Notes: generated from the letters alone by a model not told the origin. Positions 26,263 to 46,011 are shown, counted from the first letter of the stretch. The stretch is 62,924 nucleotides of DNA from Desulfobacterales bacterium (GCA_027027005.1 JALVMN010000375.1:1-62924); one strand, 5' to 3'. Translations and numbers: made by a program.

Positions 26263-27654
26263 ATGATTTTTCAGGAGCGAGAGGTCAACCGTTATTGGAG
26301 GGAAATCTTCGATGCAATGAACGATGGGATGATGGTGATTGCCGGTGACGGGACAATTATCATGGTGAACAATGCTTTCTCAGAGATCACCGGATATGAA
26401 AAAGATGAGATCGTCGGAAAGAGCTGCTCCATGCTGAGATGCGATGTCTGTTCTATTGCAAGGAAGGGAGGGGAGGGAAAATGGTGCGTTCTCTTTGATG
26501 AAGGTCGTCTACATACCAAGCGCTGTACAATAATGAGAAAGGATGGCTCCTTAAGGACCGTGGTCAAGAACGCCTCCCTGCTCAAAGGCTCAGACGGAAC
26601 AGTACTGGGCGCCGTGGAAACGTTAACGGACCTGACAGAAATCACCGATCGGGACCAGAAGATCGAGAACCTCTGTCAGATGCTGGGAAAAAGGAGTGGC
26701 TTTTGCGGGATGATCGGGGAATCTGCGGCCATGCGAGAGGTCTTCCAGATTATTGAAAAGGCCGCCCTCAGTGATGCCCCGGTCATCATTTACGGGGAGA
26801 CCGGAACAGGGAAAGAACTGGTGGCACAGGCGATTCACCAGTTGGGCTGGAGGAGGGAGGGGCCCTTTATTCAGCTCAACTGTGCGGCTCTAAATGAATA
26901 CCTCCTTGAAAGCGAACTTTTCGGCCATATGAAGGGGGCCTTCACCGGGGCCATTCGCAATCACCGGGGACGGTTCGAGGTGGCGGACGGAGGAGATCTT
27001 TTCCTGGACGAGATCAGCGATATTCCCATGAACGTCCAGGTCAAACTCCTGAGGGTCCTGGAGACAAAACAGTTCGAGCGGGTTGGGGATAGCCGTCCCA
27101 TCTCTGTGGATGTCCGGATCATCAGCGCAAGCAACCGCGATCTGAAGGATCTGGTCAGACAAAAGCTGTTCAGGGAAGACCTTTTTTTTCGCATCAATGT
27201 CATCCCCATCTATCTCCCGCCGCTGCGTGAAAGAAGAGAGGACATCCCACCGCTGGTCAGACACTTTATCCATCTCCTGCGCAAAAGTTCGCAGAAAGAG
27301 ATCAAGGGGTTGACCCCGGAAGCCATGAGGGTCTTAATGGACTACCCCTGGCCTGGTAATGTGAGAGAGCTCAAAAGCGTCATGGAATATGCCTTTGTCA
27401 TCGCTGATACCGACATAATCTCCCCGCGTGAGCTCCCCCCGGAACTCCTGGGGAAAAACCGGAGGAAGATGATAGGATATCTCACTCCCGACGATAAGGA
27501 TGAGACCCAGAAGAGAGAACTCCTGGAAGCCCTCAAGAAATGTAACGGAAATCAAACAAGGGCTGCCGAGATCTTGGGCGTCAGCCGGGTAACAGTATGG
27601 CATCGTATGAAGAAGTACGGGATTGACTTGAAAAGGGCCCTCTCATCCCTGTAA
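26263..27654 (+). CDS. Sigma54-dependent transcriptional activator (PAS, AAA+, Fis-type HTH; no receiver domain)
   Basis: GETGTGKELVAQAIH Walker A, ESELFGHMKGAFTGA (GAFTGA loop), C-terminal NQTRAAEILGVSRVTVWHRMKKYG HTH. The N-terminal PAS domain has 5 Cys. Confidence 0.9.
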   Translation: MIFQEREVNRYWREIFDAMNDGMMVIAGDGTIIMVNNAFSEITGYEKDEIVGKSCSMLRCDVCSIARKGGEGKWCVLFDEGRLHTKRCTIMRKDGSLRTVVKNASLLKGSDGTVLGAVETLTDLTEITDRDQKIENLCQMLGKRSGFCGMIGESAAMREVFQIIEKAALSDAPVIIYGETGTGKELVAQAIHQLGWRREGPFIQLNCAALNEYLLESELFGHMKGAFTGAIRNHRGRFEVADGGDLFLDEISDIPMNVQVKLLRVLETKQFERVGDSRPISVDVRIISASNRDLKDLVRQKLFREDLFFRINVIPIYLPPLRERREDIPPLVRHFIHLLRKSSQKEIKGLTPEAMRVLMDYPWPGNVRELKSVMEYAFVIADTDIISPRELPPELLGKNRRKMIGYLTPDDKDETQKRELLEALKKCNGNQTRAAEILGVSRVTVWHRMKKYGIDLKRALSSL

Positions 27655-27707
27655 AAGATATCTCATGTCTCCATCCAATCGAAATCTTTGAGCAGATAGG
27701 GGTAAGT

Positions 27708-27776
27708 CTAATTCGGTCTCAAAACACCCAAATAAGTCAGGTGGGTTTGGGACACCCTCTGGTAGTTGGTCTCCAT
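27708..27776 (-). pseudogene. Remnant of a glcD-like 5' end
   Basis: Encodes METNYQRVSQTHLTYLGVLRPN-stop versus glcD METNYQRVTQLHLTYLENIV. The DNA is 41/50 identical to 21689-21738. Confidence 0.55.
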
Positions 27777-27840
27777 TTAAGCACTCCTTTTGCAATTTTT
27801 TATCCATCAAGCCAGCACATGCCCTGTTGCGCTTGCTTCT

Positions 27841-27956
27841 ATATTACCCCTATTTTTCCTTTGAATTCCAGGTAATACTTGGTATGGATATGGCCGATCT
27901 CAAACCAGGAGCCTGATTGTAGCGGGAATTCGGCTCATCCACAAGGAGGACTGACA
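27841..27956. repeat. 116-bp direct repeat, copy B
   Basis: 115/116 identical to 21802-21917. Lies about 90 nt upstream of the nuoE-like start. Confidence 0.95.
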
Positions 27957-28045
27957 AAGGATTGGGAAAGACAGGGGCTGAAAACTTAGGTGAACAAGAC
28001 CATACAAACTTGAATGAAGAAGCCTCATTACTGGAGAGGGAGGCC

Positions 28046-28564
28046 ATGTCGGCCGATCTTGAGAAACTCCTCTCACGCTTTCCACGAGAGAGTTCGGCCC
28101 TAATCCCCATCCTCCAGGCCATCCAGGCCAAATACGGATATATTGACCCAATGGCAATGGAAAAGGTGGCCCAACACCTCGGCCTTGCGGTTGTGGAGGT
28201 TTATGGGGTGGCCACCTTTTACAATCAGTTCAGGTTTCATCCCCCTGGCAAACACCAGATCAAGGTATGTCTGGGCACTGCCTGTCACGTGAGGGGTGGT
28301 GATATAATCCTTGAAAATTTTGAAAGAAAGCTGGGTATCAAAAGGGGGGAAACCACCCAAGACAGGGAATTCAGCTTAGACAGTGTGGCCTGTGTTGGCT
28401 GCTGTGCCCTGGCCCCTGTGGCAGTGGTGGACGAGGAGATAAAAGGGCACATGCTTCCCAGCAAGGTGGAGGGCATCGTTTTGGGGTTTCAGTTGCAGAA
28501 GGAAAAAGAGGCAAGGGAAAAAGACAAGGCAGGCAAGGATGGGAACTCCGAGTCAAGCAGTTAA
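28046..28564 (+). CDS. NuoE/HoxE-like [2Fe-2S] thioredoxin-fold subunit
   Basis: LIPILQAIQAKYGYI, VCLGTACHVRG and CVGCCALAP cluster motifs. ATG at 28046 follows GGAGAGGGAGG. Confidence 0.85.
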   Translation: MSADLEKLLSRFPRESSALIPILQAIQAKYGYIDPMAMEKVAQHLGLAVVEVYGVATFYNQFRFHPPGKHQIKVCLGTACHVRGGDIILENFERKLGIKRGETTQDREFSLDSVACVGCCALAPVAVVDEEIKGHMLPSKVEGIVLGFQLQKEKEAREKDKAGKDGNSESSS

Positions 28565-30488
28565 CAAGGCATATGAGGAGCTGAGGAAAGAGGCTCTCAA
28601 GCGGCGTAGCCTGCTGGAGAAATCCACCCTGCCGAAAATTTATGTGGGAATGGCCACCTGCGGGATTGCTGCAGGCGCGTTGGAGACCAAAGAGGCCTTC
28701 CAGGAAGCCTTGAAACAGGAAGGCATAGAGGCAATGGTTCGTAGTGTTGGATGCCTGGGGCATTGCTATGCAGAACCCACCGTAGTGATCCACGACCCCC
28801 AGACAGACTTTCCCCCTATCCTTTACTACAATGTAAGCCCAGGAAAGGCCCGGATGCTGGTAAGGTCTTTTTTGAAGGAAGGCGACCCTCTTTTTGAATA
28901 CATGCTCGGGGCCACTGAGCCCAATGAGGTGCTCCCCTGTGTGTCGGATTTTCCAAGATTCGGTCAGGAGACCAAGGTGGTGATGGAAAAGTCAGGCCTC
29001 ATAGACCCTGAAGATATACACGATTATATCGCGCTGGGTGGCTATGAGGCCCTTGCAAAGGCCCTCACCCTTCCACCAGAGGAGATCATCCAAGAGATAA
29101 AGGATTCCGGGCTTCGAGGCAGGGGCGGGGCAGGATTTCCCACCGGAGAAAAGTGGGGGCTGGCAGCAGGGGCCCTGGGACCAGGCCGGGAGAAATACGT
29201 CATATGCAATGCCGACGAAGGTGACCCGGGCGCTTACATGGACAGGACCATACTTGAGAGCAATCCCCATCAAGTGATTGAGGGGATGATAATCTGCGCT
29301 TATGCCATAGGGGCGTCCAGGTGTTTCATATACATCCGGGCTGAATACCCTCTGGCCGTAAAGATTGTCACCAAGGCCATTGAGGATGCCAGGGAACTGG
29401 GTCTTTTGGGCGATTCCATCCTTGGAAGTTCATTCCATGTTGATGTCACCGTATTTCAAGGCTCTGGGGCCTTTGTGTGCGGGGAAGAAACAGCCCTCAT
29501 CCATTCCATTGAGGGTAAGAGAGGCACACCCCGGCACCGCCCCCCCTATCCCGTGGAAAGGGGCCTCTGGGGACATCCCACAGTAATAAATAATGTGAAG
29601 ACCTTTGCATCAGTCCCTCCTATAGTGACCAGGGGGGCAGGCTGGTTCAGGGGTATTGGCACAGAGCACAGCCCAGGCACTGCCATCTTTTCTATTGTGG
29701 GAAATGTCACACACCCGGGCCTTGTGGAAATCCCCATGGGTGTTACCCTCAGGACCTTGATATTCAAGATTTGTGGCGGCCCCCCGGAGAAAAAGGCGTT
29801 CAAGGCGGTCCAGATAGGCGGCCCCTCTGGAGGGTGCCTACCCGATGAATTCCTGGATATCCCCATAGACTTTGACTCCCTCACAGAGGCAGGGGCCATG
29901 ATGGGCTCCGGGGGCATGGTGGTCCTGGACAAGGATGCCTGCATGGTGGATGTGGCCCGCTATTTCCTGGATTTCACCCAAAAGGAGTCATGCGGAAAGT
30001 GCACATTTTGCAGGATAGGGACCAGGCATCTGCTGGAGATACTGGAAAGGATCACCAGGGGGGAAGGCAAGGAGGGTGACCTTCAAATCCTCGAGACCCT
30101 TTCTCGCCACATAAAACTGGGCTCCCTTTGCGGGTTGGGGAAGACCGCGCCCAACCCGGTGCTCACATCGCTCAAGTACTTCAGGGAAGAATACGAGGCC
30201 CATGTAAAGGAAAAAAGATGTCCTGCAATGGTTTGCAGGACGCTCACAGCATTCTACATCGATCTGGAAAAATGCGCCCGGGGGTGTGATGCATGCGTGG
30301 GCTCTTGCCCCACCGAGGCCATTTTTACCACGAGAGACCGGAAAAAGGCCATAGACCAGGAGCTATGCGTAAAGTGCGGCGAATGTGTGGTGGCCTGCCC
30401 CCCGGAATACGATGCAGTGAGAAAGATATCCCCGGCCCACCAGGTGCCCATTGTGGAAAGACCCAAGGAAGGTCCCTCTGAAAAGTAA
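28539..30488 (+). CDS. NuoF/HoxF/HydB-like NAD(H)- and FMN-binding subunit with extra Fe-S domains
   Basis: GLRGRGGAGFPTG(E)KW, NADEGDPGAY, ESCGKCTFCRIG and C-terminal 2x[4Fe-4S] ferredoxin motifs (CDACVGSCP, CGECVVACP). Confidence 0.85.
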   Translation: MGTPSQAVNKAYEELRKEALKRRSLLEKSTLPKIYVGMATCGIAAGALETKEAFQEALKQEGIEAMVRSVGCLGHCYAEPTVVIHDPQTDFPPILYYNVSPGKARMLVRSFLKEGDPLFEYMLGATEPNEVLPCVSDFPRFGQETKVVMEKSGLIDPEDIHDYIALGGYEALAKALTLPPEEIIQEIKDSGLRGRGGAGFPTGEKWGLAAGALGPGREKYVICNADEGDPGAYMDRTILESNPHQVIEGMIICAYAIGASRCFIYIRAEYPLAVKIVTKAIEDARELGLLGDSILGSSFHVDVTVFQGSGAFVCGEETALIHSIEGKRGTPRHRPPYPVERGLWGHPTVINNVKTFASVPPIVTRGAGWFRGIGTEHSPGTAIFSIVGNVTHPGLVEIPMGVTLRTLIFKICGGPPEKKAFKAVQIGGPSGGCLPDEFLDIPIDFDSLTEAGAMMGSGGMVVLDKDACMVDVARYFLDFTQKESCGKCTFCRIGTRHLLEILERITRGEGKEGDLQILETLSRHIKLGSLCGLGKTAPNPVLTSLKYFREEYEAHVKEKRCPAMVCRTLTAFYIDLEKCARGCDACVGSCPTEAIFTTRDRKKAIDQELCVKCGECVVACPPEYDAVRKISPAHQVPIVERPKEGPSEK

Positions 30489-30492
30489 GGCC

Positions 30493-31134
30493 ATGGAGAT
30501 GGTTGAAATCATAGTGGACGGAAAATCGCTGAGGGTGGAGCAAGGTGGAAATCTCCTGGAGGCATGCCTTGAGGGCGGCATCTACATCCCAAATCTATGC
30601 CACCTCAAGGGCATGGAAGAGCCCCCGGCATCCTGCAGGCTCTGCCTGGTGGAAGTGGAGGGGGAGGAGAGACCAGTGACAGCCTGCACCGTAAAGGTGG
30701 CTGGTCCAATGGTGGTAAGGACCAATACTCCGCTGGTAAGGGAGCTTCAACGCTCGGCCCTCAGGTTGCTGCTTTCGGCCCACCTGGTGGATTGCGCCCA
30801 CTGCCAGGCAAACAAGAGGTGTGCACTTCAAGATATGGCCAAGTTTCTCCAGATAGGGCTCAAGCCTAAGGGGCTGGACCAATTCTTGAAGGAGCCTGAA
30901 ATTGATGACTCACACCCTTGTCTGGTGTATTATCCCAACAGGTGCGTTCTCTGTGGAAGGTGCATTTATGTCTGCAAAAGAGAGCACCCTCGGCCCATGC
31001 TCTCCTTTGCAAAACGGGGCTTTGACACGGTGGTTAGCCTCTACGGGGCTTCTGACAGGATCGATCTTCCCTGCTACACCTGTTCCCTTTGTGTGGATGT
31101 GTGCCCTGTCTCAGCCCTTTTAAGAAAGACCTGA
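30493..31134 (+). CDS. HoxU / NuoG-N-terminal-like Fe-S subunit (2Fe-2S plus 4Fe-4S only, no catalytic domain)
   Basis: 213 aa. CRLCLVEV...C plant-type 2Fe-2S, HxxxC...C motif (HLVDCAHCQANKRC), CVLCGRCIYVC and CSLCVDVCP. Confidence 0.75.
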   Translation: MEMVEIIVDGKSLRVEQGGNLLEACLEGGIYIPNLCHLKGMEEPPASCRLCLVEVEGEERPVTACTVKVAGPMVVRTNTPLVRELQRSALRLLLSAHLVDCAHCQANKRCALQDMAKFLQIGLKPKGLDQFLKEPEIDDSHPCLVYYPNRCVLCGRCIYVCKREHPRPMLSFAKRGFDTVVSLYGASDRIDLPCYTCSLCVDVCPVSALLRKT

Positions 31135-32411: not shown

Positions 32412-32852
32412 ATGAACGACCCTGAAGTCAGGCTCAAAGAGATGCTCCAGAAGCTGAGGGAGCGGAGGTTCAGGATTACCCCCCAGAGGCTTGCGGTGCT
32501 AAAAATCCTTGCCCGAAGCGAGAATCATCCCAGTGTGGACATGATTTACGAGGAGGTGAGGCGGGATTTTCCCACCACAAGTCTTGCAACCATTTACAAG
32601 ACCGTGACCCTCCTGAAGGAGCTTGGCCAGGTCTTGGAATTGGGCTTTCCTGAAGGCAGCAATCGATTTGATGGAAACGAGCCCTCACCTCATCCTCACA
32701 TGATCTGTATCAGTTGCAAGAAGATAGTTGATCCGCCGCTCGACTCCCTATCGGATCTAACCAGTGAAGCGGCGCAAAAGACAGGGTTCAACATCGTCAC
32801 CCACAGGCTGGATTTCTTCGGGATATGTCCTGAATGCCAGGGCAAAAATTGA
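32412..32852 (+). CDS. perR: Fur-family regulator, PerR-like
   Basis: RITPQRLAVLKIL winged helix, HPHMICISCKKIVD and GICPECQG CxxC pairs. Sits immediately upstream of katG. Confidence 0.7.
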   Translation: MNDPEVRLKEMLQKLRERRFRITPQRLAVLKILARSENHPSVDMIYEEVRRDFPTTSLATIYKTVTLLKELGQVLELGFPEGSNRFDGNEPSPHPHMICISCKKIVDPPLDSLSDLTSEAAQKTGFNIVTHRLDFFGICPECQGKN

Positions 32853-33108: not shown

Positions 33109-35313
<2,205 letters not shown>

Positions 35314-36554: not shown

Positions 36555-36712
36555 GAAATCCCCCTTTTTATCCTTTAGTGGGGCAAAATGAGTAATATGT
36601 CGAACAATCTAAAGGCTGTGGCTCTTTTTTGTCAACCTGGAGGGCCTTAGAGTCGTCCCACAAAAAAATAAACCACTTGAATGAGGCGAATATTTTCAAT
36701 ATACTCCGCCGC

Positions 36713-37258
36713 ATGGAAAAAAAACCCGAACCACACATAATGATCCTGGGTGTAGGCAACATCCTTTTCAAGGATGAAGGCCTTGGGGTCAGGGTCATCG
36801 AACGAATTCAGGAACTCTATGATTTTCCCGAAAATGTCTCAGTGGTCGACGGAGGGGTATTGGGCTTGGGACTTTTGGGGACCATCTCCCAGGCGGACCA
36901 CCTGATAGTAGTGGATGCCATAAGAAACGGGGGGACTCCTGGGACCTTGTACAGGCTCTGCGGCGAAGAAATCCCCAAGAGGATCTTTGCAAAGAACTCC
37001 CTTCACCAGGTGGATCTCCTGGAGGCCTTGACCCTGTGTCAGGCCCTGGACAAGGTCCCTGAGACCGTGATCATTGGCGTGGAACCAGAAGATATAGACT
37101 CACTGGACATAGAACTTACCGACACAGTTAAGGCAAGGGTGGACCAACTTATCCAAAGTGTGCTGGAGGAGCTGGCCCGGCTAAATGTCACACCAACACC
37201 AAAGGGCTCTGGAGGGACCAACACGCATGTGCCTTGCAATACCTGCCAAGATAGTTGA
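36713..37258 (+). CDS. hybD: [NiFe]-hydrogenase maturation endopeptidase (HybD/HyaD family)
   Basis: IMILGVGNILFKDEGLGVRV, VVDGG, VVDA and SLHQVDLLEAL match the HybD metal-ligand blocks. ATG at 36713. Confidence 0.8.
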   Translation: MEKKPEPHIMILGVGNILFKDEGLGVRVIERIQELYDFPENVSVVDGGVLGLGLLGTISQADHLIVVDAIRNGGTPGTLYRLCGEEIPKRIFAKNSLHQVDLLEALTLCQALDKVPETVIIGVEPEDIDSLDIELTDTVKARVDQLIQSVLEELARLNVTPTPKGSGGTNTHVPCNTCQDS

Positions 37259-37460
37259 GATACGTGATGGAATGGGAATAATCGACATGGAGGGCACCAG
37301 GAGGGAGGTAAGCCTCCTTCTTCTGGAAGACCCCAAGGTGGGCGAGTATGTGATTGTGCACGCCGGCTTTGCCATCCACAAGGTGGACGAACGAGAGGCC
37401 CAAGAGTCTTTGAAGGTCTTGAGGGAACTTGCAGCCTTTGCAGCAGAGGACAATACATGA
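37227..37460 (+). CDS. hypC: Hydrogenase assembly chaperone HypC/HupF
   Basis: Starts MCLAIPAKIVEI (essential N-terminal Cys). 77 aa. Overlaps the hybD 3' end. Confidence 0.85.
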   Translation: MCLAIPAKIVEIRDGMGIIDMEGTRREVSLLLLEDPKVGEYVIVHAGFAIHKVDEREAQESLKVLRELAAFAAEDNT

Positions 37461-37597
37461 AAAAGGGCATATTCATATTTGCTTGACAAGGTTGGTTTTT
37501 TTTATTAGGGTTGTGCAAGTTTTCACAAGTGGGACCCAGGCTCTTTCAATCAAAACATAGGGGTTAACAGTTAGCCGAAAAGGAGGTGGATGCGGGG

Positions 37598-38017
37598 ATG
37601 AAACAGAAGGTTCTGATGGTTATGGTGGCCATTTTGGCAGGTTTCATGTTTCTGGCTGTGGGGGTGTTGACAGCCACTGATGTGCCCGAACAAGTGACGA
37701 TAGAGAATACCGGGTATAAGAAGGACAAAAAAGGCCCGGTTAAACTAGCCCACAAAAAACATTCTGCTGAATACAAGGTCGCCTGCACAGAGTGCCATCA
37801 CGAATACAAGGATGGCAAGAATGTCTGGAAGGAAGGAGACCCTGTCAAAAAGTGTAGCGAGTGCCACAATCCCAAGAAAAAAGAGGGGAAAGTCTTAAAG
37901 CTCCAGAACGCATATCACAAGAACTGCAAGAGCTGTCACAAAAAATTGGTAAAAGCAGGTAAGGGAAAGGCACCTTTCAAGAAGTGCTCACAGTGCCACC
38001 AGAAGAAAAAGAAATAA
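37598..38017 (+). CDS. Tetraheme cytochrome c3-family protein with N-terminal signal/anchor
   Basis: Four CxxCH motifs (CTECH, CSECH, CKSCH, CSQCH) in about 100 Lys-rich residues with interspersed His. AAAGGAGGTGG RBS upstream of the ATG at 37598. Confidence 0.85.
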   Translation: MKQKVLMVMVAILAGFMFLAVGVLTATDVPEQVTIENTGYKKDKKGPVKLAHKKHSAEYKVACTECHHEYKDGKNVWKEGDPVKKCSECHNPKKKEGKVLKLQNAYHKNCKSCHKKLVKAGKGKAPFKKCSQCHQKKKK

Positions 38018-38042
38018 TCCTTTAGACATACGAGGCATGAGA

Positions 38043-38070
38043 GGGGAGGTTGTCAATTGACCTCTCCTTT
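38043..38070. terminator. Hairpin between the convergent cytochrome c3 and bd-like genes
   Basis: GGGGAGGT-tgtcaattg-ACCTCTCC (one G-U pair) followed by TTT on the plus strand. Confidence 0.5.
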
Positions 38071-38071
38071 C

Positions 38072-39130
38072 CTATGCCTTGACTCTTGCCTTCCTCGTAA
38101 TCCTTACCATCCACACGATACATCCCATGCCGAACAACAATACCGCCAGAAAAAAGACCAAGGGAGAATATTGGCAGGTTACCTTGAGTGTAGATGGGTA
38201 GAAGTAGCCCTGAAGCAGTTCACCCCGAAGATACGCTCGCATGAATGTCATAACATAGATGACCAAGACAGAAAGCACCACCGTGGGCCAAAGCCTTTGC
38301 CTCCGGGAGGCCAGCAGGGCCGATATCACGAGGAGTATGGCGACTCCAAAAAGCAATGTGGGCCATATCTTGGCCCCCAAGAATATCATCTTGCTGTCTC
38401 CAGGTATCCTGAGCAGGAACCAGGTGCCTATGGCGATGTTAAGAAGGGTTACCCAGAAAAATGTCTTCATGCCCACGCTCTTTGCCTGATCCGCCATTTC
38501 AGGGTCCACCTTTCTTTTCAGTTCACCCAGCACAGCCACAAACAGCCCACCTATTGCCACAGACCCTGCCATCATGTGAAGAAATCTGGGCAGAAACATG
38601 GCATGCCATGAGACCAGCATGTCTCCTCCCATGTGGTCAAAGTATTCAGAGAAGAGGTGCGGCAGGGTCATAAAGGTCATGTTGTTGCTGAACATGTAGC
38701 CGATCACTACCAGGAGGGCCAAGGCCCCTATCGCAATTATCACCCCCAGGCCACCCAGTTGCTTAAAGCGGAAGTCATAGAGATAAAGCCCGTAATATGC
38801 CGCAATGAGCATGGGTATCACCAGTATCCAGAAAGCCCCCATCAATATGGTGCTGGTGTAAATGAGATGGCCGTACAGCACCTGCAGGAAAAGCAGGGGG
38901 GCAACCCCCATATTCACTGCAAAGGCCACCACCACGGGCAGAGAAACCGCCACTGTGTGGGCAACTCTACGGTTTGCAGGGCCGCCTCTGAACCATTCAA
39001 AAATACTCAGGCCAAGGCCTCCAACCATGGCGTTCATGGCCAGGAGGTGGATGGGAAAGAGGAGCAGCAAGAATGCCTGGAACCACCACCACTGCACTGG
39101 TATGGGGTCTGGTACAGGGATGAAGTTCAT
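38072..39130 (-). CDS. Polytopic membrane partner subunit of the bd-like oxidoreductase (CydB-analogous position)
   Basis: 352 aa, about 9 TM helices. The start overlaps the upstream CydA-like stop by 4 nt. No recognisable soluble domain. Confidence 0.45.
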   Translation of the reverse strand: MNFIPVPDPIPVQWWWFQAFLLLLFPIHLLAMNAMVGGLGLSIFEWFRGGPANRRVAHTVAVSLPVVVAFAVNMGVAPLLFLQVLYGHLIYTSTILMGAFWILVIPMLIAAYYGLYLYDFRFKQLGGLGVIIAIGALALLVVIGYMFSNNMTFMTLPHLFSEYFDHMGGDMLVSWHAMFLPRFLHMMAGSVAIGGLFVAVLGELKRKVDPEMADQAKSVGMKTFFWVTLLNIAIGTWFLLRIPGDSKMIFLGAKIWPTLLFGVAILLVISALLASRRQRLWPTVVLSVLVIYVMTFMRAYLRGELLQGYFYPSTLKVTCQYSPLVFFLAVLLFGMGCIVWMVRITRKARVKA

Positions 39131-40665
39131 GACCTCCCCTCCTTTATGGTGTAAAGATAGTCAGCAAGCAGGTCCTTTTCCTGGGATGTTCCCTCAAAGG
39201 GGGGCATTTCATCTGAAAGTTCCTCCAGCCTGTCCAGCATATCTCTAAGGGTGTCCCTGTCTCGATCAGCAATCAGCTCTCTCATCTCTTCAATGGAATG
39301 GCAGGAGGAGCAGTTGTCCTCGAACAGTGTATCGCCCCGTGTGGGTAATGCGGCGACAGGAGGGAGTTCTTTTTCGATGGGTTTTCCGTGGAGCCCTCCC
39401 ACAATGAAGGCAGCAAGTGCCTTGGCCTCCTCCTCGGTGCCTGCAAAGGGGGGCATGAAGTATCGCACCCGGTGTATCCTCTCTATGTATTTGACCATGC
39501 CCCGAAGGCTCATCCCCTTGGTCCTAACAACGATGTCATTATTAATACCCCCGATGGTGTGGCAGGCATAGCACTGGTGGATGAATATCTCTCTGCCGGC
39601 ATCGATTAGTTTGCTTTCTGCAACATTCCGATTCTTAACCCACTTGGCCATCTTCAAGAACCCTGTCTCGTTTATCTGAGGGAGGTCATTTTCAAATATC
39701 ATGTTTGAATACATGACTTGATTTATCACATAGGGTCGTCTTGCAGCCTCCCTGGTCCACTCAAAGGAGCCCATGAACAGAAGCGCGCTCACAAAGACAA
39801 CGAGAGAGGTGATCTTGTTGTTAAGCTTGGGCAGCACCATGCCTGCAACAATAGAGACGACGATGATCGCAACAAGTGAGCCCAGGCCCCAGAGCTTGGC
39901 TACTTCTATGGTGGGCGATTTGCCCATAATCAGCTCCTGGGCAGGGGTGGGAAGGGCCTTCAGATACCAGTAAGCAGAGGGGATGATGCCTGCCACTGCC
40001 ACCAGGCACCACTTTGCAGAAAACCTGGTCATTTGGACTCGGACCACTCGGTCCTTTGAAAAGGATGAAGTCACATAACCGAATGCCCCTGCCATGAGAA
40101 AAGCGAGAAATGTCCTGAAGAACATGGAAGGAAGAAAGCTCGGGTTTAAAAAGCCTGACCAGAAGTTTTGATCTTGAACCCATCTACCTGGAGTCAACAT
40201 GAAGGCCACTATCCCGTTTATGAGGACCAGGCTCATCCACGCGCTGAAGAAATACATCCAGCCGATCTTTTGGTGTGAGGAGGGTTCCATCTTGCCGAAC
40301 ATGTAGAAATAGATAAAGGCGGCCAGGATCTCCACCACGAAAAACACCCATTCAGCGGCCCATCCAAATACAAAGTTGTGAATCAAAAGGGAGGTGGCAG
40401 CAGGATTGACAAGAGAAATGATCCACCATATTCCAACGCCTGTAATAGACCCATAGACAAGGGTAACCAGGATAAAGAACTTTGCGTGCGATCTGGTGAA
40501 CTCCAGGATCTTGCCGCTCCTCTCCTTTAGCCCCTTCCTTTCCGCAAGAACCAGGTACAACCCGCCGCCCACAGCAAAATGGGCCACAAACACGTGGGTT
40601 ACTGCTATGAGGGCAATCAAGCTCCCACCGCCTATGGCGGGTAGAAACCACGCAGGATAGTTCAT
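39127..40665 (-). CDS. Cytochrome bd-superfamily subunit I-like protein fused to two C-terminal monoheme cytochrome c domains
   Basis: By-eye alignment to E. coli CydA: ALIAVTHVFVAHF vs ALTAMYHFLFVPL; GWAAEWVFFVVEI vs AIEGLMAFFLEST; REAARRPYVI vs EYGRQPWAI. CYACH at 39559-39573 and CSSCH at 39298-39312 (minus strand). Confidence 0.65.
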   Translation of the reverse strand: MNYPAWFLPAIGGGSLIALIAVTHVFVAHFAVGGGLYLVLAERKGLKERSGKILEFTRSHAKFFILVTLVYGSITGVGIWWIISLVNPAATSLLIHNFVFGWAAEWVFFVVEILAAFIYFYMFGKMEPSSHQKIGWMYFFSAWMSLVLINGIVAFMLTPGRWVQDQNFWSGFLNPSFLPSMFFRTFLAFLMAGAFGYVTSSFSKDRVVRVQMTRFSAKWCLVAVAGIIPSAYWYLKALPTPAQELIMGKSPTIEVAKLWGLGSLVAIIVVSIVAGMVLPKLNNKITSLVVFVSALLFMGSFEWTREAARRPYVINQVMYSNMIFENDLPQINETGFLKMAKWVKNRNVAESKLIDAGREIFIHQCYACHTIGGINNDIVVRTKGMSLRGMVKYIERIHRVRYFMPPFAGTEEEAKALAAFIVGGLHGKPIEKELPPVAALPTRGDTLFEDNCSSCHSIEEMRELIADRDRDTLRDMLDRLEELSDEMPPFEGTSQEKDLLADYLYTIKEGRS

Positions 40666-40677
40666 GGTGCCACCCCA

Positions 40678-41607
40678 TTATGAAGGTTCACGCCTTTTGT
40701 CTCCCAGGTGTTTTCTCATGCTCAGCCACATGAAGTAAATTATCATAAAGGTCGTAACAATTGCAGCAGGAAGAGCAGCCTTCTTGCCAAACAATACCAA
40801 AGCGATCCCTGCTGCCGTGCCGGCATTCTTAAGGGTTCCCAAGAGTTTGATGCTTATGCGTCTGGCTGGATCCAGGCCCAGCCGTCCTGAAACAAAATCT
40901 GTGAGTGCGCCCAACAAGAAAGTTGATGAAAGGCAAACGACAAGTAAAGGAGCAATCACATCCAGGTCATTGAAAAACACCTTCCTGTTCAGCCCTATGA
41001 TGGTATAGATCACCACAAAAAAACCCCAATTGGTGATGGTTCCTTTGTGGGGCAGGATGGGCCTGTCAGCCCCGAGGAATATCAAGATCCTTGAGGCCAC
41101 GATGGGGGCGATCACCAACTGGCCCAAGATAATCAAGACCTTTACAGGATCTATGATAGTTGTTCCCAGGAAGGTCAGGCAAATCAGAGGCGTTATTACG
41201 AGCCCGCCGAGATAACCCCCGATTGTGGCCATCAGAGAAAAGGCCGTATCACCCCCGAGCAGCCCTGTAAATGGTATCACAGCCACAGCCGGAGGTACCG
41301 AGGCCACCAGCACGATCCCGGTCCACAGCATCTCATCAGAGATGAGAACTCTTCCCAGTCCAATGAGGACTCCTGCCTGGACCACGAAGTTCATTAACAA
41401 TCCCGTCAATATGGGAAGGGTCATGGAACGATTTACCCTGAAAAACTCGCCTGGAATACCAAGGGTGGAGACCGTCATCACTATGGCAAGGGCTGGCAGC
41501 ACTGCCCATTTGGTGACAGCCGCCCATTTACCAAGAAAGAGTCCACAAAAGATAGCCAGCGAAAAAATAAAGTTCCTGTTACGGAAGCATGAAATCAAAC
41601 GGTTCAA
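40678..41607 (-). CDS. BASS/AEC-superfamily-like transporter
   Basis: 309 aa, about 10 TM helices. The block ASVPPAVAVIPFTGLLGGDTAFSL resembles the SBF CPGG..S....LA.GD.ALS motif. Lies 12 nt upstream of the bd-like gene. Confidence 0.4.
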   Translation of the reverse strand: MNRLISCFRNRNFIFSLAIFCGLFLGKWAAVTKWAVLPALAIVMTVSTLGIPGEFFRVNRSMTLPILTGLLMNFVVQAGVLIGLGRVLISDEMLWTGIVLVASVPPAVAVIPFTGLLGGDTAFSLMATIGGYLGGLVITPLICLTFLGTTIIDPVKVLIILGQLVIAPIVASRILIFLGADRPILPHKGTITNWGFFVVIYTIIGLNRKVFFNDLDVIAPLLVVCLSSTFLLGALTDFVSGRLGLDPARRISIKLLGTLKNAGTAAGIALVLFGKKAALPAAIVTTFMIIYFMWLSMRKHLGDKRREPS

Positions 41608-42122
41608 GGCATACCTCTTACAAGTGAATTCTTCGGGCGATGTTTCCTTATATCAAGGGTCATTTAATAATGGAAGGGAATGAGGGAATGGGTTCTTCGG
41701 AAGTGGAGACAGGTCTTGAAAACATTGTAATCCTCAATTGTTAACAATCTGCTCAGTGGATAATAGCCATCAGTTTGCTTTGGATTCAATTCTTGGCCCT
41801 GAAAAGCATCCTTACAGGGTGCGCTGTCTATATATACTGCTCTTGCCTGGTCATGATTCAAGGAAATCACCTGCCGTCCGATAAAAAATTAGCTGATTAC
41901 TTTCGCTTTCTTCAATCTTGAACGACGCTGGGATCGGCATAGGGGCAGAAATAACCCCTTCTGCTCTCCGATCTAGCTTGATTCAATAGTCTGTGAGTTT
42001 AAAAGGGTCAGCGAGCCAGGGTGAATGCTTAAGCTCTCTTCGTTTTTGTGTTGTCGCTACCAGAAAAAAATCGGCAACCGACTATACCCCACAAACTTAT
42101 TAGGGAAAAAAGGAGGGTGATA

Positions 42123-44435
42123 ATGCTTCGTGCTTCAAGGTGTTATTATGCTTCTTTGGGGATACTATTTTTTGCTTTCTCTGCTTTGTTTATTTGGAAC
42201 AGTGAGACGGCTGCATCCCCCTTTTATCATAACGAGGCTCACCATTACAGTCTTGAAATACCAGCCGGATGGGAACAAAGCACGGAATCTATCAGTCAGG
42301 GCTCTGACTTAACGTTGGTTAACAAGGACATGGGAGTCGTTGTAGATATCCAATATCTAGAGGAATCCGAGCCGTCAGCATATGAGGAGTATTGCAGGCT
42401 GATGGAGGATTTCTTTCGTAGTGATAAGGACTTTGATCTGCTCAAGACCAGGCACATGGATTTGCCCCGATTGGACACCAAGGCCTTTATCCTTTTCCTA
42501 AAGGCTAAAGACAAGAGCCATATCCGTGCCGTGGCCTTTGTTCCGCGCTCGCTTGGGCCCGAAAACCGCGTGCACTATCTTGTAAGGGCCATGGCCCGGC
42601 CCAGCAGAAGTAAACAGGCAGAGCATGCCCTCGAAGAAATACTTGGCAGGCTGAAACTTGAGCAAGCTGACACAGGCGATGGGACCATCAAATACAGCGA
42701 GTCACAAGAACCTGATCCCGAATACCAGGTGGTGGGCACGAGATATTTTTCGTTTTTGATCCCCAAGGACTGGAAGGGTGACGTCAAGGAAGGGGAAGAG
42801 CAATACGGGATCATTTGCCATTTTTCCAAAGGAGATGTCGAGTTTTTTCTCAGATCCAAGGCCCTGATTTCATATCCCGGCACTGCCATTGAAAAGGTCC
42901 TGGAAAGAGAAATCAAAATGCTGAAAATGATCTATGATGAAGTGGTCCTTATTTCCAAGAATCAGATAAAACTCTCATCCCGCACAGCCTTAGAGGCAGA
43001 ATTCAAGTATAAGAATTCACGAAAAAACAGAAGAGAAACCTTGTTAACTTTGATCACCAGAGACCCCCATGATGACAGCCTATATTATAGCCTTAAACTG
43101 ACAATCAGCCCCGGCCAGTCCTCCAATGCCATTGCTTATGGAAGAAGGGTATTTGAAAAGATAAAGGAGAGCTTCCTGTTTGAGTCGGCCACAAAAAGGT
43201 CCTCAGGATCAAAATTGAGTCAGAAGCCACAGCTAAAGGCTGAGAGAAGAGAAAATGAGGGGAATAAAATAAACAGCCAGAAAGTCTATGTTCACGAACA
43301 ACACGGATATAGACTCAAGATACCAGCCGGGTGGGAACGGGTGGAGGATTCGCCCATCGAGGCAGCGGATATCACCCTTGTAAACAAGAAAATGAAAGTG
43401 GTGGCAGGAATACAAGTGGTGGAGGAGGACTCATCCTTTTCTACAAAAGAATACTTCGAGCGCCTCGTCTCTCTATTCCGCAGTGAGAGCAGCGACTTCG
43501 AGGTCTTGGGCACCAGCAGGGGGGAGTTCCAAAACCTTGGCAGAGATTGCTATATCATGAAGATCAGGGGCAAGGATGGATCCCAGGTAAGAACAGCGGC
43601 GATAATATCGGCCTCACCCAATGAGATAGGGTCCTCCTTTTACATCGTCCTGGCTGTATCAACAGGGCACGACGCGGAAAACACCGAAAAGGCGATCACT
43701 GAGATATTGCCTAATTTGACCTTTATGCCGTATCGGCCATTGACTCGGTCAAAGGGGATCAAAGCCACCCCCCAGGTATTTGAGATAAAGTTTGCAAAGG
43801 GTATTGAAAACGGCAAGCCTTACGGGATAAGCAGTGTTTTTGATCCTGACACAAATCCCATCTATGTATGGTTCAGGTATAAGAATATCCCAAAGGGGAG
43901 CAAGATCAGGTGCATATGGCACTATCTGGGCAGAGGCAAGCCTTACAAGATTGGTGAGGGTGGAGTTGACACAGTGCTGGAGTCGGACTGGGTTCAATTC
44001 AATTACGAACTGGCAGCGGGAAAGAAGTGGCCTTCCGGCAAATACCGGGTTGACATTATTCTCGGCTCTAAGACGCTTGATAGCGCGTTTTTCGAGGTCA
44101 AGGAGACAGAATTATCAGCCGATGCCTCCCACGTGGAAAAAATGACCCCATTTTATATTGTGGAGAAGTTGAATCAATTGATTGTCAAGACAATGCGCCC
44201 TTCCGATTACCTGCCCTATCTGGACGAGGAAAGCCAGCGCCTGGTAATGGAAAGTCCAGATCTGTTAGCTTCTTTTCTTAAAAGATTTCGAAATGTTCAG
44301 GTTGACGCACCGTTTGAGATCACGCAGATATTAGCCGATGGTCCCGACTATCTCGTGTCCACAAGGTCCGGGTATTCACTGAGGTTCAGGAGGATAGAAA
44401 ATGACGAGAATTTCAGGCTTGCTCTGTGGTATTAG
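42123..44435 (+). CDS. Secreted/anchored protein of unknown function with repeated (F/L)xIPxxW domains
   Basis: ATG at 42123 follows AAAAGGAGGG, then an N-terminal hydrophobic anchor. Modules start YHNEAHHYSLEIPAGWEQ, TRYFSFLIPKDWKG and YVHEQHGYRLKIPAGWER (PsbP/DcrB-like pattern), followed by a C-terminal beta-sandwich-like segment. Confidence 0.5.
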   Translation: MLRASRCYYASLGILFFAFSALFIWNSETAASPFYHNEAHHYSLEIPAGWEQSTESISQGSDLTLVNKDMGVVVDIQYLEESEPSAYEEYCRLMEDFFRSDKDFDLLKTRHMDLPRLDTKAFILFLKAKDKSHIRAVAFVPRSLGPENRVHYLVRAMARPSRSKQAEHALEEILGRLKLEQADTGDGTIKYSESQEPDPEYQVVGTRYFSFLIPKDWKGDVKEGEEQYGIICHFSKGDVEFFLRSKALISYPGTAIEKVLEREIKMLKMIYDEVVLISKNQIKLSSRTALEAEFKYKNSRKNRRETLLTLITRDPHDDSLYYSLKLTISPGQSSNAIAYGRRVFEKIKESFLFESATKRSSGSKLSQKPQLKAERRENEGNKINSQKVYVHEQHGYRLKIPAGWERVEDSPIEAADITLVNKKMKVVAGIQVVEEDSSFSTKEYFERLVSLFRSESSDFEVLGTSRGEFQNLGRDCYIMKIRGKDGSQVRTAAIISASPNEIGSSFYIVLAVSTGHDAENTEKAITEILPNLTFMPYRPLTRSKGIKATPQVFEIKFAKGIENGKPYGISSVFDPDTNPIYVWFRYKNIPKGSKIRCIWHYLGRGKPYKIGEGGVDTVLESDWVQFNYELAAGKKWPSGKYRVDIILGSKTLDSAFFEVKETELSADASHVEKMTPFYIVEKLNQLIVKTMRPSDYLPYLDEESQRLVMESPDLLASFLKRFRNVQVDAPFEITQILADGPDYLVSTRSGYSLRFRRIENDENFRLALWY

Positions 44436-46011
44436 TCTGATTTTTCTAGCAACACTCCTATTCATCTTACAGGTGCCGCAAGAATTGAGAGCCCAGGTCA
44501 TCTGGAAGCCTGGAGTCTATCTGGGAAAGGACGTAAGTTCAATGACAGATGAGGAACTGGAGGAGAACATAAAAGATGCCGCAAAAAATTATTTGTGGTG
44601 GAAAAAGGCTGCCGAGAAAAAGGGCAAGACCAAATCTCACCGAGCCGAGCTTTACAGAAAAGGGCTTGATGAATTGATGTACGTGGTAAAACTCAGAAAG
44701 CTAAGGGCTTCGAAACGCATTCCCAAGGCTAGGACGCCCGAAGAGCGATATCGCACAAGAGAAGAATACCTCAGGCTGAACAAGCTTGAGGATATTTGCT
44801 GGCAAAGCCTTAATCCTCAAAAGTCGGGCTGGATCATGACCATGGACGACATAAACGAGGCTATACAGGAAGATGGTCTGAAGAACTTAAACCCTGTCAC
44901 ATTCCTTAAGAACATGGCCATCAAGAAGTGCGAAAAAAGCTTCTTGAGTTACATGGAGCGAAAGGGGGTGCCTGAGCCAATCGCAAGGGAGCAGTGGGAA
45001 CTCCTTTCTGGAAAGGGAGCAACAAAGATAAAGACACCCATCGAGCATGCTGCTGAATACTTAGAAGATAAACTTGTTGATAAAACGAGGGAGCTATTGG
45101 ATGCCAAGGCCTATGAAAAAGGCTTTATCAGGAAGCGATTCACTAAAAGAGCATTGGACAAGTTGAACATTATCGCCATGGCCTCCGAAGTTTTCCTGGC
45201 TGCTGAAAGGGCATACCTCTATTCTCAGAGCAACTATGAGGATCTTATCGCTCAGGTAAACAAATTGAGGGGAAAGGGTTTGAGCGATGAGGAGATTGTC
45301 AAATGGTACAATGACTCTGAGTTTAGGAAAAAAATTCGTAAACAGGCCCTGGAGCAAAACCGGATAAAGAATGAGATGTTGAAAAAACAGGCCAATGAAA
45401 AAGCCATTGCCGCTTACAAGTATCATTTGGCATTGCGTCACGCAAAGCGCACCATTGCAGAAGCCAGGGGGGTCGCCCCTGACGATATATCAGGACAGGA
45501 AGCTGAGCGTTACCTCAATGAGGGAGAATACAGGAAAAAGGTCGACACAAGGGTATATAGACTCCGAGAGGCTCGGCGCACCCTAGCACTTGCGAAGATG
45601 AAACCAGCATACAAGATATCCAGAGAAGAGCTTGACAGATTTCTTGAAGACCCGGAGTTCAGGAAGCTTTCGCTCAAACAGGCCAGGGAAAATTCTTTGA
45701 GGATGCAACAAATGAGGAAGAAAGGTCAAAGTGAGGCAGGGTTGGCCAATACTGGTGGACAAAGCACGATTGACCGAGACGTCCCGACAGAGATTGAGCA
45801 AGACAGCAATCCAGACCATATAGCCAATAACCAAAGACGGGTGCAAGAAATACTTGATTCCATTCCTACACCACCTGTTGTGGAAACCCCTGAAATGAAG
45901 AAGCTCTCTGACATGGTGGACAAAATCACATCAAACACACCCCCTCCCAAAGGGATAAAGGGCCTCCAAAATCATCCTGTCTTCAAAAAGTTCAGCGGCT
46001 CTCAAAACTAG
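44401..46011 (+). CDS. Secreted Lys/Glu-rich coiled-coil repeat protein, function unknown
   Basis: AGGAGG RBS and signal peptide MTRISGLLCGISLIFLATLLFILQVPQELRAQ. Three repeats of [LI]S-x-(E/Q)E-x3-[WYF]-x-(N/E)-(D/E)-x-E[FY]RK. Overlaps the upstream gene by 35 nt. Confidence 0.5.
   Translation: MTRISGLLCGISLIFLATLLFILQVPQELRAQVIWKPGVYLGKDVSSMTDEELEENIKDAAKNYLWWKKAAEKKGKTKSHRAELYRKGLDELMYVVKLRKLRASKRIPKARTPEERYRTREEYLRLNKLEDICWQSLNPQKSGWIMTMDDINEAIQEDGLKNLNPVTFLKNMAIKKCEKSFLSYMERKGVPEPIAREQWELLSGKGATKIKTPIEHAAEYLEDKLVDKTRELLDAKAYEKGFIRKRFTKRALDKLNIIAMASEVFLAAERAYLYSQSNYEDLIAQVNKLRGKGLSDEEIVKWYNDSEFRKKIRKQALEQNRIKNEMLKKQANEKAIAAYKYHLALRHAKRTIAEARGVAPDDISGQEAERYLNEGEYRKKVDTRVYRLREARRTLALAKMKPAYKISREELDRFLEDPEFRKLSLKQARENSLRMQQMRKKGQSEAGLANTGGQSTIDRDVPTEIEQDSNPDHIANNQRRVQEILDSIPTPPVVETPEMKKLSDMVDKITSNTPPPKGIKGLQNHPVFKKFSGSQN

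Follow-up and report, generated by a model that had tools for sequence, protein, structure and literature searches.

A CydA-like protein with a fused di-heme cytochrome c tail and its paralogous partner as a predicted OR-C1 member of the cytochrome bd superfamily in a Desulfobacterales bacterium

Introduction

The cytochrome bd superfamily has three member families, namely qOR, OR-C and OR-N, that were defined by Murali, Gennis & Hemp in 2021 (bioRxiv 10.1101/2021.01.16.426971). Of these three branches, OR-C is widespread, mainly in nominally anaerobic sulfate and metal reducers. The defining study counted 532 OR-C sequences in GTDB and proposed that cytochrome c is the likely electron donor (bioRxiv 10.1101/2021.01.16.426971). 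Within this family the OR-C1a protein typically has eight transmembrane (TM) helices followed by a C-terminal periplasmic heme c, and is encoded adjacent to a paralogue, OR-C1b (bioRxiv 10.1101/2021.01.16.426971). Here we describe a pair of this kind, encoded in a stretch of 62,924 nucleotides of DNA from a Desulfobacterales bacterium (GCA_027027005.1 JALVMN010000375.1:1-62924). This whole stretch is referred to below as the window, and positions are counted from its first letter. We call the CydA-like protein with the fused cytochrome c tail subunit A and its partner subunit B.

According to Supplementary Table 6 of the defining study, OR-C1a retains H24, E105, E112, S145, H131, Y119, Y121, V77 and W80, has F183 at the position of H186, and lacks M393, E445 and W441 (bioRxiv 10.1101/2021.01.16.426971). 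An initial annotation of the window, made from its sequence, had stated that CydA-like clades fused to c-type hemes have been surveyed and are biochemically uncharacterised, and the literature agrees: OR-C1 was published in 2021, and later papers cite the classification only. A second body of work concerns CydAh of cable bacteria (Desulfobulbaceae), a distant CydA homologue of the inner membrane to whose C-terminus a periplasmic cytochrome domain is fused. Two roles have been discussed for CydAh, that of a conduit from quinone to the periplasm and that of a candidate O2 reductase, and the literature calls its role unresolved. Most cable bacteria are said in that literature to be without CydB.

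Results

The A-B pair matches OR-C1a and OR-C1b

The genes for A and B lie on the minus strand and overlap by 4 nucleotides (nt), such that the stop codon of A and the start codon of B share the sequence ATGA, as expected of the translational coupling that had been claimed for them. The features of the pair are as follows.

39127-40665, minus strand: subunit A (OR-C1a type), 512 amino acids (aa); open reading frame (ORF) call, Pfam, AlphaFold2 model and Foldseek.
38072-39130, minus strand: subunit B (OR-C1b type), 352 aa; ORF call, AlphaFold2 model, Foldseek and hhalign.
39127-39130, minus strand: ATGA shared by the stop of A and the start of B, with GGAGGGGAGG, the ribosome-binding site ahead of the B start, upstream of it.

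Subunit A resembles OR-C1a in its eight TM helices and in the periplasmic heme c at its C-terminus, in being without a Q-loop, H186 and M393, and in having a paralogue encoded next door. Moreover, H24, V77, W80, E105, E112, Y119, Y121, H131, S145 and F183 of the OR-C1a reference are found in A as the same residues with the same numbers, and the taxonomic range is shared (Desulfobacterota, Desulfuromonadota and Acidobacteriota). Judged by sequence, the A-B pair thus belongs to OR-C1a/OR-C1b, and nothing that we found excludes this membership.

Subunit A is a remote member of the bd superfamily

At the level of Pfam, the assignment of A to the CydA family held only in part. Residues 17-223 of A itself match PF01654 at 24.6 bits, below the cut-off of 26.2 (E 1.2e-5), yet 22 of 27 relatives of A match this family at E <= 0.01 (the best at 1.1e-9); no PF02322 match was found for B. 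HMMER searches of the PDB with A, B or the family profile returned only cytochrome c domains or noise and did not reach CydA. Because the relationship is too remote for HMMER searches against single chains, we used hhalign with deeper profiles together with predicted structures. In particular, a profile built from 87 diverse representatives of the A family (clustered at 50% identity, and the source of the conservation percentages given for A below) aligned with E. coli CydA with a probability of 78% and an E value of 1.8e-5, over residues 12-328 of A and 7-471 of CydA. Note that the CydA side of this alignment was shallow (effective number of sequences, Neff, 1.4), the search for CydA homologues having given only relatives of at least 86% identity. 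(An early alignment of A with CydA, made with shallow alignments of Neff ~2, gave an E value of 0.35 and is superseded by the one with deeper profiles.)

The AlphaFold2 model of A (predicted local distance difference test, pLDDT, 80.6; predicted template modelling score, pTM, 0.74) has eight long helices and, after them, two small domains that are also helical. When this model was compared with the PDB by Foldseek, ranks 1-10 were all CydA (subunit I) chains, with E values of 4.5e-5 to 7e-4 and with 5doq_A, 9r2g_A, 7nkz_A and 6rko_A among them, and ranks 11-18 were all subunit II chains, so that only chains of bd oxidases were found. The PF01654 matches of the relatives, the profile alignment and the AlphaFold2/Foldseek comparison therefore agree, and at the level of sequence and model they confirm A as a bd-superfamily protein. 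Homologues of A number more than 4,856, and clustering of its membrane domain at 50% identity (E <= 0.001) yields 851 clusters. Relatives are present in at least 587 species-representative genomes, and many Desulfobulbales are among the closest relatives of A.

Subunit A carries two predicted periplasmic cytochrome c domains

Subunit A can be divided into a membrane domain and two cytochrome c domains:

39631-40665, minus strand: membrane domain of A, residues 1-345, eight TM helices and no Q-loop (AlphaFold2 helices, charge counts, hhalign).
39376-39630, minus strand: cytochrome c domain 1, residues 346-430, with C365-Y-A-C-H369 and distal M404 (PF13442 over residues 354-421).
39130-39375, minus strand: cytochrome c domain 2, residues 431-512, with C452-S-S-C-H456 and distal M487 (PF00034/PF13442).

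The two C-terminal CxxCH motifs reported by the initial annotation were thus found, as CYACH at residue 365 and CSSCH at residue 452. With eight TM helices and the N-terminus outside, the membrane domain has 15 Lys and Arg residues on the inner side and 4 on the outer side, and both its N-terminus and its C-terminus are periplasmic. This charge distribution argues that both CxxCH motifs are periplasmic, which is the side that covalent attachment of heme requires; a cytoplasmic location had been named as a point that would speak against the original description.

The tail matches PF13442 in two stretches (E 2.7e-16) and PF00034 (E 1.5e-8). The Pfam match is of the cbb3 subunit III type, and alignments with c6 and CcoP span both the CxxCH motif and the MPPF motif. 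The pattern CxxCH...MPPF typical of class I is present in both domains, with M404 and M487 as the distal Met residues. In domain 1, C365, C368 and H369 are conserved at 99% and M404 at 95%, and M487 of domain 2 is invariant in the alignments compared. The two domains are therefore best described as putative class I c-type cytochromes with predicted His/Met ligation. Domain 1 is near-universal in the family, the first CxxCH motif lying around position 365 in almost all representatives, and domain 2 is a repeat module present in varying copy number, with relatives having 2, 3 or 4 modules in the alignment. After domain 1 come 0, 1 or 2 more small repeats, or else a multiheme extension, giving a total of 1, 2, 3 or 8 heme c; the protein of the window is the two-heme form.

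The deposited gene call for A (P0001/P0511, 497 aa) starts 15 codons downstream of the ATG used here. The 512-aa start is backed by the N-terminal sequence MNYPxW(Y/F)LP, which is conserved among homologues and lies within these first 15 codons (40621-40665), and the deposited sequence is probably truncated at its N-terminus.

Subunit A appears to retain the oxygen-side ligands and has lost the quinol side

The positions in A that bear on the hemes and on proton delivery are listed below with their E. coli CydA equivalents, the numbering of which was verified on the K-12 sequence.

40594-40596, minus strand: H24, equivalent to E. coli CydA H19, the axial ligand at the heme d/b595 site (alignment; 95% conserved).
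40330-40353, minus strand: E105...E112, equivalent to E99 and E107 of the proton channel and heme d environment (alignment; 97% and 94% conserved).
40114-40119, minus strand: F183-R184, with F183 at the position of H186, a b558 ligand (hhalign register, conservation).
39730-39762, minus strand: E302-W-T-R305-E306-A-A-R309-R-P311-Y312, at the periplasmic end of TM8 (hhalign, conservation).

The CydA hallmarks that the initial annotation had described, namely H24 (in ALIAVTHVFVAHF), E105 and E112 (in GWAAEWVFFVVEI, with 6 residues between them) and the REAARRPY block (residues 305-312), were all found in the places where it had put them. Note that the 6-residue spacing between E105 and E112 is of the qOR3/qOR4a type. 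The alignment equates H24, E105, E112 and H131 of A with H19, E99, E107 and H126 of CydA; F183 and G260 with H186 and M393; and E302, E306, R309, P311 and Y312 with W441, E445, R448, P450 and W451. Conservation is high at W102 (99%) and in the block at the end of TM8, with E302 at 94%, R305 at 98%, E306 at 94%, R309 at 98% and P311 at 100%. In CydA, E445 is the ligand of heme b595, and E306, which lies in an E-x-x-R-x-P-Y block, is its likely equivalent, the local confidence of the alignment being moderate. Since E306 aligns with this ligand, A would keep both axial ligands of the di-heme O2 site (H24 and E306), and it also keeps both glutamates of the proton channel (E105 and E112).

At the position of H186, the earlier reading of Arg was out of register by one residue: F183, not R184, stands opposite H186, consistent with the published OR-C1a table, and F183 is a variable hydrophobic residue among the 87 representatives. 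The conclusion that His is missing there stood. Subunit A has no His between residues 132 and 362, and thus a b558 with His/Met ligation is impossible in A in any register of the alignment. Consistent with the further claim that a long periplasmic Q-loop is missing, the loop between TM6 and TM7 of A has 17 aa vs ~153 aa in E. coli. The quinol-side module has thus been lost from A. R184 (40114-40116), which lies beside the lost b558 His position, is kept in 86 of the 87 representatives. The published description of OR-C1a assigns no function to it, and it might serve in binding a heme propionate or in docking of the c domains.

Subunit B is a CydA paralogue with two conserved His residues

Subunit B has no match in Pfam or NCBIfam, is without heme c, and has homologues that are annotated only as 'hypothetical'. 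Its AlphaFold2 model (pLDDT 77.7, pTM 0.81) has nine helices, the last of which spans residues 323-351, in agreement with hydropathy. In Foldseek comparisons with this model, ranks 1-9 were all CydA or CydB chains of bd oxidases, with template modelling (TM) scores of 0.52-0.61. Moreover, deep profiles of A and B aligned by hhalign over almost their full shared length (A3-328/B4-321) with a probability of 96.9% and an E value of 1.8e-10, which argues that B is a paralogue of CydA; sequence and model together thus identify B as a full-length CydA paralogue with a predicted bd fold. (An early shallow alignment of A with B was only partial and is superseded.) An hhalign comparison of B with E. 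coli CydB was not significant.

Two sites in B stand out in a set of 35 sequences that includes four very divergent fused B domains:

39047-39049, minus strand: H28 of B, equivalent to A H24 and E. coli H19 (35/35 conserved; pairs with A H24).
38576-38587, minus strand: R182-F-L-H185 of B, equivalent to E. coli K183-F-V-H186 (R182 in 35/35; H185 in 34/35, with Met in the exception).

H185 of B pairs with F183 of A, which in turn pairs with H186 of E. coli CydA, and there is a local likeness between R182-F-L-H185...GGLF of B and K183-F-V-H186...GAMF of E. coli. The direct alignment of B with CydA has the same local register and is not significant overall (E 0.59), so the equivalence of H185 with the b558 His rests on the chained B-A and A-CydA alignments and on the local motif; we regard it as suggestive. 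The earlier claim that a b558 site is missing can therefore be upheld for A, which has no equivalents of His186 and Met393, but not for its partner, which has the conserved H185 at the position equivalent to H186.

Subunit B has no equivalents of E99, E107 and E445, and there is no Glu in its TM3 segment (residues 93-117), which aligns with the segment of A that holds E105 and E112. The periplasmic loop between TM6 and TM7 has 13 aa, and no partner for H185 equivalent to Met393 was identified in the A-CydA and A-B profile alignments. One possibility, which we put forward tentatively and rate as fairly improbable, is that the b558-type heme site was moved to B rather than lost from the complex, and that B binds one or two b-type hemes. 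Were this the case, redox cofactors would be present in both large subunits, with the c hemes and the di-heme O2 site in A and one or more b hemes in B, and within one complex the periplasmic cytochrome pool might be connected with O2 and with the quinone pool of the membrane.

A and B form one unit

The top 80 loci of species-representative genomes served for counting gene neighbourhoods. B lies directly downstream of A in 73 of these 80 loci. Of the seven loci in which B is not adjacent, five stop at a contig edge; frameshifts break up a sixth (L014), and the remaining exception is L016. In addition, natural fusions in which the membrane domain of A, the heme c region and B form one chain of ~800-865 aa with 1-2 heme c were found in four proteins (P0253, P0275, P0297 and P0365). 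These fusions place the N-terminus of B on the periplasmic side, and they could be convenient candidates for expression and structural work. By the 4-nt overlap, the adjacency in 73 of 80 loci and the four fusions, A and B are one unit.

Both L014 and L016 come from metagenome-assembled genomes (MAGs) of the MFD... series, and in both the ORF of A ends just after the membrane domain, with no intact B behind it. In L014 (4001-7000) the coding sequences for A, heme c and B are all present in frameshift-split form, and an assembly error is more likely than pseudogenisation.

Predicted function of the A-B pair

The anatomy, topology, fold and homology of the two proteins, the conservation of the ligands and the coupling of A with B are established by the analyses above. 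With somewhat more confidence than doubt, we favour the view that A and B form a heterodimeric membrane enzyme, a cytochrome c:O2 oxidoreductase of the OR-C1 branch that is likely electrogenic; its electron donor, the occupancy and type of its hemes, O2 as the acceptor and electrogenicity are what we infer. Electrons from the periplasmic cytochrome pool would enter by way of the two fused His/Met c hemes of A, the conserved first c domain taking over the place of b558 and the Q-loop as the point of entry. They would then pass to the di-heme site within the first four helices of A, with H24 and E306 as ligands, where O2 would be reduced to water, and protons would arrive from the cytoplasm through the E112/E105 channel. 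Turnover would be electrogenic, as it is in bd oxidases, since electrons would arrive on the periplasmic side and protons on the cytoplasmic side. B would occupy the place that CydB has in bd oxidases. In an anaerobe, the likely role of such an enzyme would be high-affinity scavenging of O2 or microaerobic respiration.

That cytochrome c rather than quinol is the donor was already suggested by the initial annotation, and it is supported here, agreeing both with the proposal made for OR-C and with every feature that was tested. The role of the pair, which had been left open, can be narrowed towards O2 reduction, because E306, the equivalent of E445, is kept (94%) together with the rest of the oxidase core. 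Consistent with this, the fused CydA homologue has been named a candidate O2 reductase in the cable-bacteria literature.

Several points weigh against this assignment. The sequence cannot reveal which hemes occupy the H24/E306 site, or whether they do, or that O2 is the acceptor, and the searchable literature up to 2026 holds no biochemical study of any OR-C member. The equivalence of E306 with E445 depends on a profile alignment of moderate confidence and on the shared E-x-x-R-x-P-aromatic pattern, and the published OR-C1a table lists E445 and W441 as absent (bioRxiv 10.1101/2021.01.16.426971). Furthermore, the strictly conserved R184 of A and the two conserved His residues of B have no role in the model. 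Finally, no conserved gene for a dedicated donor, for maturation or for an O2-related function lies beside the pair in the 80 loci, and the perR-katG genes that lie 2.8 kb from the A-B operon in the window are absent from all of them.

The two conserved His residues of B, together with R182 at the position of K183, are what an alternative role as a redox conduit would make use of. In the manner of CymA, A-B would shuttle electrons between the quinone pool and periplasmic cytochromes; B would provide one or more b hemes by way of H28 and H185 and might also hold a quinol site, and the c hemes of A would be the periplasmic inlet or outlet. Transfer from quinone to the periplasm has been proposed for the fused CydA homologue in the cable-bacteria literature, and family members carry up to 8 heme c, as is typical of electron-wiring proteins. 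However, neither subunit has a Q-loop, the TM6-TM7 loop of A having 17 aa and that of B 13 aa, H185 has no identified partner equivalent to Met393, and the direct B-CydA alignment is not significant. Moreover, E105, E112 and E306 would be needless in a pure conduit, yet they are 94-97% conserved. We consider the conduit unlikely.

Equally unlikely, in our estimation, is that the di-heme site reduces another oxidant (H2O2, NO, peroxynitrite or nitrite), such that the pair would be a detoxifying membrane reductase or peroxidase. Canonical bd oxidases have side activities on H2O2, NO and peroxynitrite. In this genome, katG and the gene for a Fur/PerR-like regulator are found 2.8 kb from the pair, and one Acidobacteriota locus flanks the pair with genes for rubrerythrin and an ODP/flavodiiron-like protein. 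Set against this, neighbourhoods are not conserved (none of the 80 loci encodes KatG, and 14 of 80 is the most in which any neighbour family occurs), and it is exactly the residues for O2 reduction and proton delivery that have been kept.

That the pair is an ordinary quinol-oxidising CydAB with a cytochrome c extension is extremely improbable: A has eight rather than nine TM helices, B is not recognised by PF02322, profile searches by sequence alone fail to reach solved CydA, and for subunit A the missing His186 and Met393 equivalents and the missing Q-loop refute this reading.

Neighbouring genes appear incidental to the pair

The open reading frames of A and B and of the two genes that flank them had all been placed correctly by the initial annotation. 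The flanking features are as follows.

40678-41607, minus strand: BASS/SBF-like transporter, 309 aa (ORF call and sub-threshold profile matches).
37586-38017, plus strand: tetraheme cytochrome c3, 143 aa (ORF call, PF02085).
38039-38071, no strand assigned: 14-bp hairpin in the gap between the convergent c3 and B genes (fold energy -21.3 kcal/mol, z = -2.64).

The transporter gene is separated from A by 12 nt, as had been noted, and in the Desulfobacterales window the two are probably co-transcribed. Its product matches PF01758 at 22.6 bits vs a cut-off of 24.3, TIGR00841 at 22.6 bits vs 326 (E 5e-5), nearly over its full length, and the PanS model at 33 bits vs 400 (E 4.6e-8), again in a nearly full-length alignment. 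On these matches it can be called BASS-like at the level of fold or superfamily only. The gene accompanies the pair in 3 near-identical contigs and is thus lineage-specific.

The c3 gene converges on the operon from the opposite strand, as described earlier, with a gap of 54 nt to B that folds into the 14-bp hairpin, a probable terminator shared by c3 and B. (A scan for promoter and terminator consensus sequences scored no higher than shuffled expectation, and we used the fold of the hairpin alone.) The description of its product as a signal-anchored tetraheme c3 is borne out by four CxxCH motifs, an N-terminal hydrophobic segment and a match to PF02085 (E 1.6e-13). The best NCBIfam match of this protein is TmcA, at 79.5 bits vs a cut-off of 114.

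When considered as conserved partners of the pair, the BASS-like transporter, c3, KatG, HypC, HycI, RmuC and the 795-aa neighbour each had to be rejected, with 0 of 80 loci. The transporter, c3, KatG, HypC, HycI and RmuC were also absent from four other loci that were read individually, and when all neighbours were clustered no family was present in more than 14 of the 80 loci. Transporter and c3 are thus incidental to the A-B module, with no functional link indicated by conservation, and the perR-katG and hycI-hypC-c3 neighbourhood is a local circumstance and a weak hint at most.

Other genes of the window include the following.

32412-32852, plus strand: Fur/PerR-like regulator, 146 aa, directly upstream of katG.
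33130-35313, plus strand: KatG (catalase-peroxidase), 727 aa.
36629-38017, plus strand: hycI (hydrogenase maturation protease), overlapping hypC, then c3, with no hydrogenase structural genes adjoining.
42048-44435, plus strand: 795-aa protein with faint PsbP/DcrB-like repeats and halves that are alike, diverging from the transporter gene.
44401-46011, plus strand: Lys/Glu-rich protein, 536 aa, with no Pfam match, overlapping the 795-aa ORF.
26263-31134, plus strand: sigma-54/PAS activator, then NuoE-like, NuoF-like (649 aa, with extra 4Fe-4S domains) and NuoG-N-terminal-like proteins.

By its sequence, the Nuo-like trio resembles a soluble flavin/Fe-S NAD(P)H-linked module, for which no catalytic partner was identified in the scanned stretch.

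Discussion

That the b558 ligands and the Q-loop are lost in OR-C, and that its proposed donor is cytochrome c, has already been published, so that the window adds little that is new on these points and no new kind of system. What it offers is a compact two-heme OR-C1 member that is suited to expression. The interest lies in the biochemistry of the family and in O2 reduction in anaerobes and cable bacteria rather than in features specific to the window. If OR-C enzymes indeed reduce O2 with electrons from periplasmic cytochrome c and protons from the cytoplasm, they would provide a third energy-conserving route of cytochrome c oxidation, free of copper, beside the aa3 and cbb3 oxidases. They would then help to explain tolerance and use of O2 in Desulfobulbales, Geobacterales and Acidobacteriota, and in cable bacteria they would offer a concrete candidate for cathodic reduction of O2.

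Comparison with known systems

Canonical CydAB, as known from E. coli bd-I, G. thermodenitrificans and M. tuberculosis, has the same fold as A-B and likewise two large subunits. Against the well-aligned CydA structures, A gives TM-scores of 0.46-0.54 when normalised to the 512-aa query and of 0.51-0.68 when normalised to the target. Equivalents of H19, E99, E107, H126, S140, E445, R448 and P450 are found in both. Unlike canonical CydA, A is without the b558 ligands, the Q-loop and TM9 and has fused c-type cytochromes, and B is a CydA paralogue with H19-type and H186-type His residues rather than a CydB that PF02322 can recognise. No small subunit of the CydX kind was seen, none having been searched for.

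A second subunit that is a paralogue of CydA and not a CydB is also found in CydAA' (qOR4a/qOR4b, Caldivirga maquilingensis) and in OR-N (the 'bd-like' proteins of Nitrospirota). As in B, the 'b' paralogues are without E99 and E107 and keep the equivalent of H19. OR-N further resembles A-B in having no quinol site and in that cytochrome c is thought to be the donor, but it differs in that its proteins have 10-14 TM helices and carry no heme c as a fusion. Quinol is still oxidised by qOR4a, and qOR4b is without H186 (A190), whereas B keeps a His at this position.

The likeness of A to CydAh of cable bacteria is one of literature description, no cable-bacterial sequence being among the top 80 loci. 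In contrast to the cable bacteria that are said to be without CydB, the partner B is present here, although it is invisible to Pfam. If B is heme-bearing, the reported lack of CydB beside a fused CydA homologue in cable bacteria would be an annotation artefact.

Compared with OR-C1 as published, two differences are apparent. B has nine predicted helices vs the eight stated for the family, for which a difference in counting or between subfamilies is possible, and the E445-equivalent E306 is found in A vs a dash in the published table. Beyond that study, the refinements offered here are E306 as a predicted b595-type ligand, a bd-fold paralogue as partner with His residues of the H19 and H186 type, the natural A-B fusions, and the incidental nature of the transporter and c3 genes.

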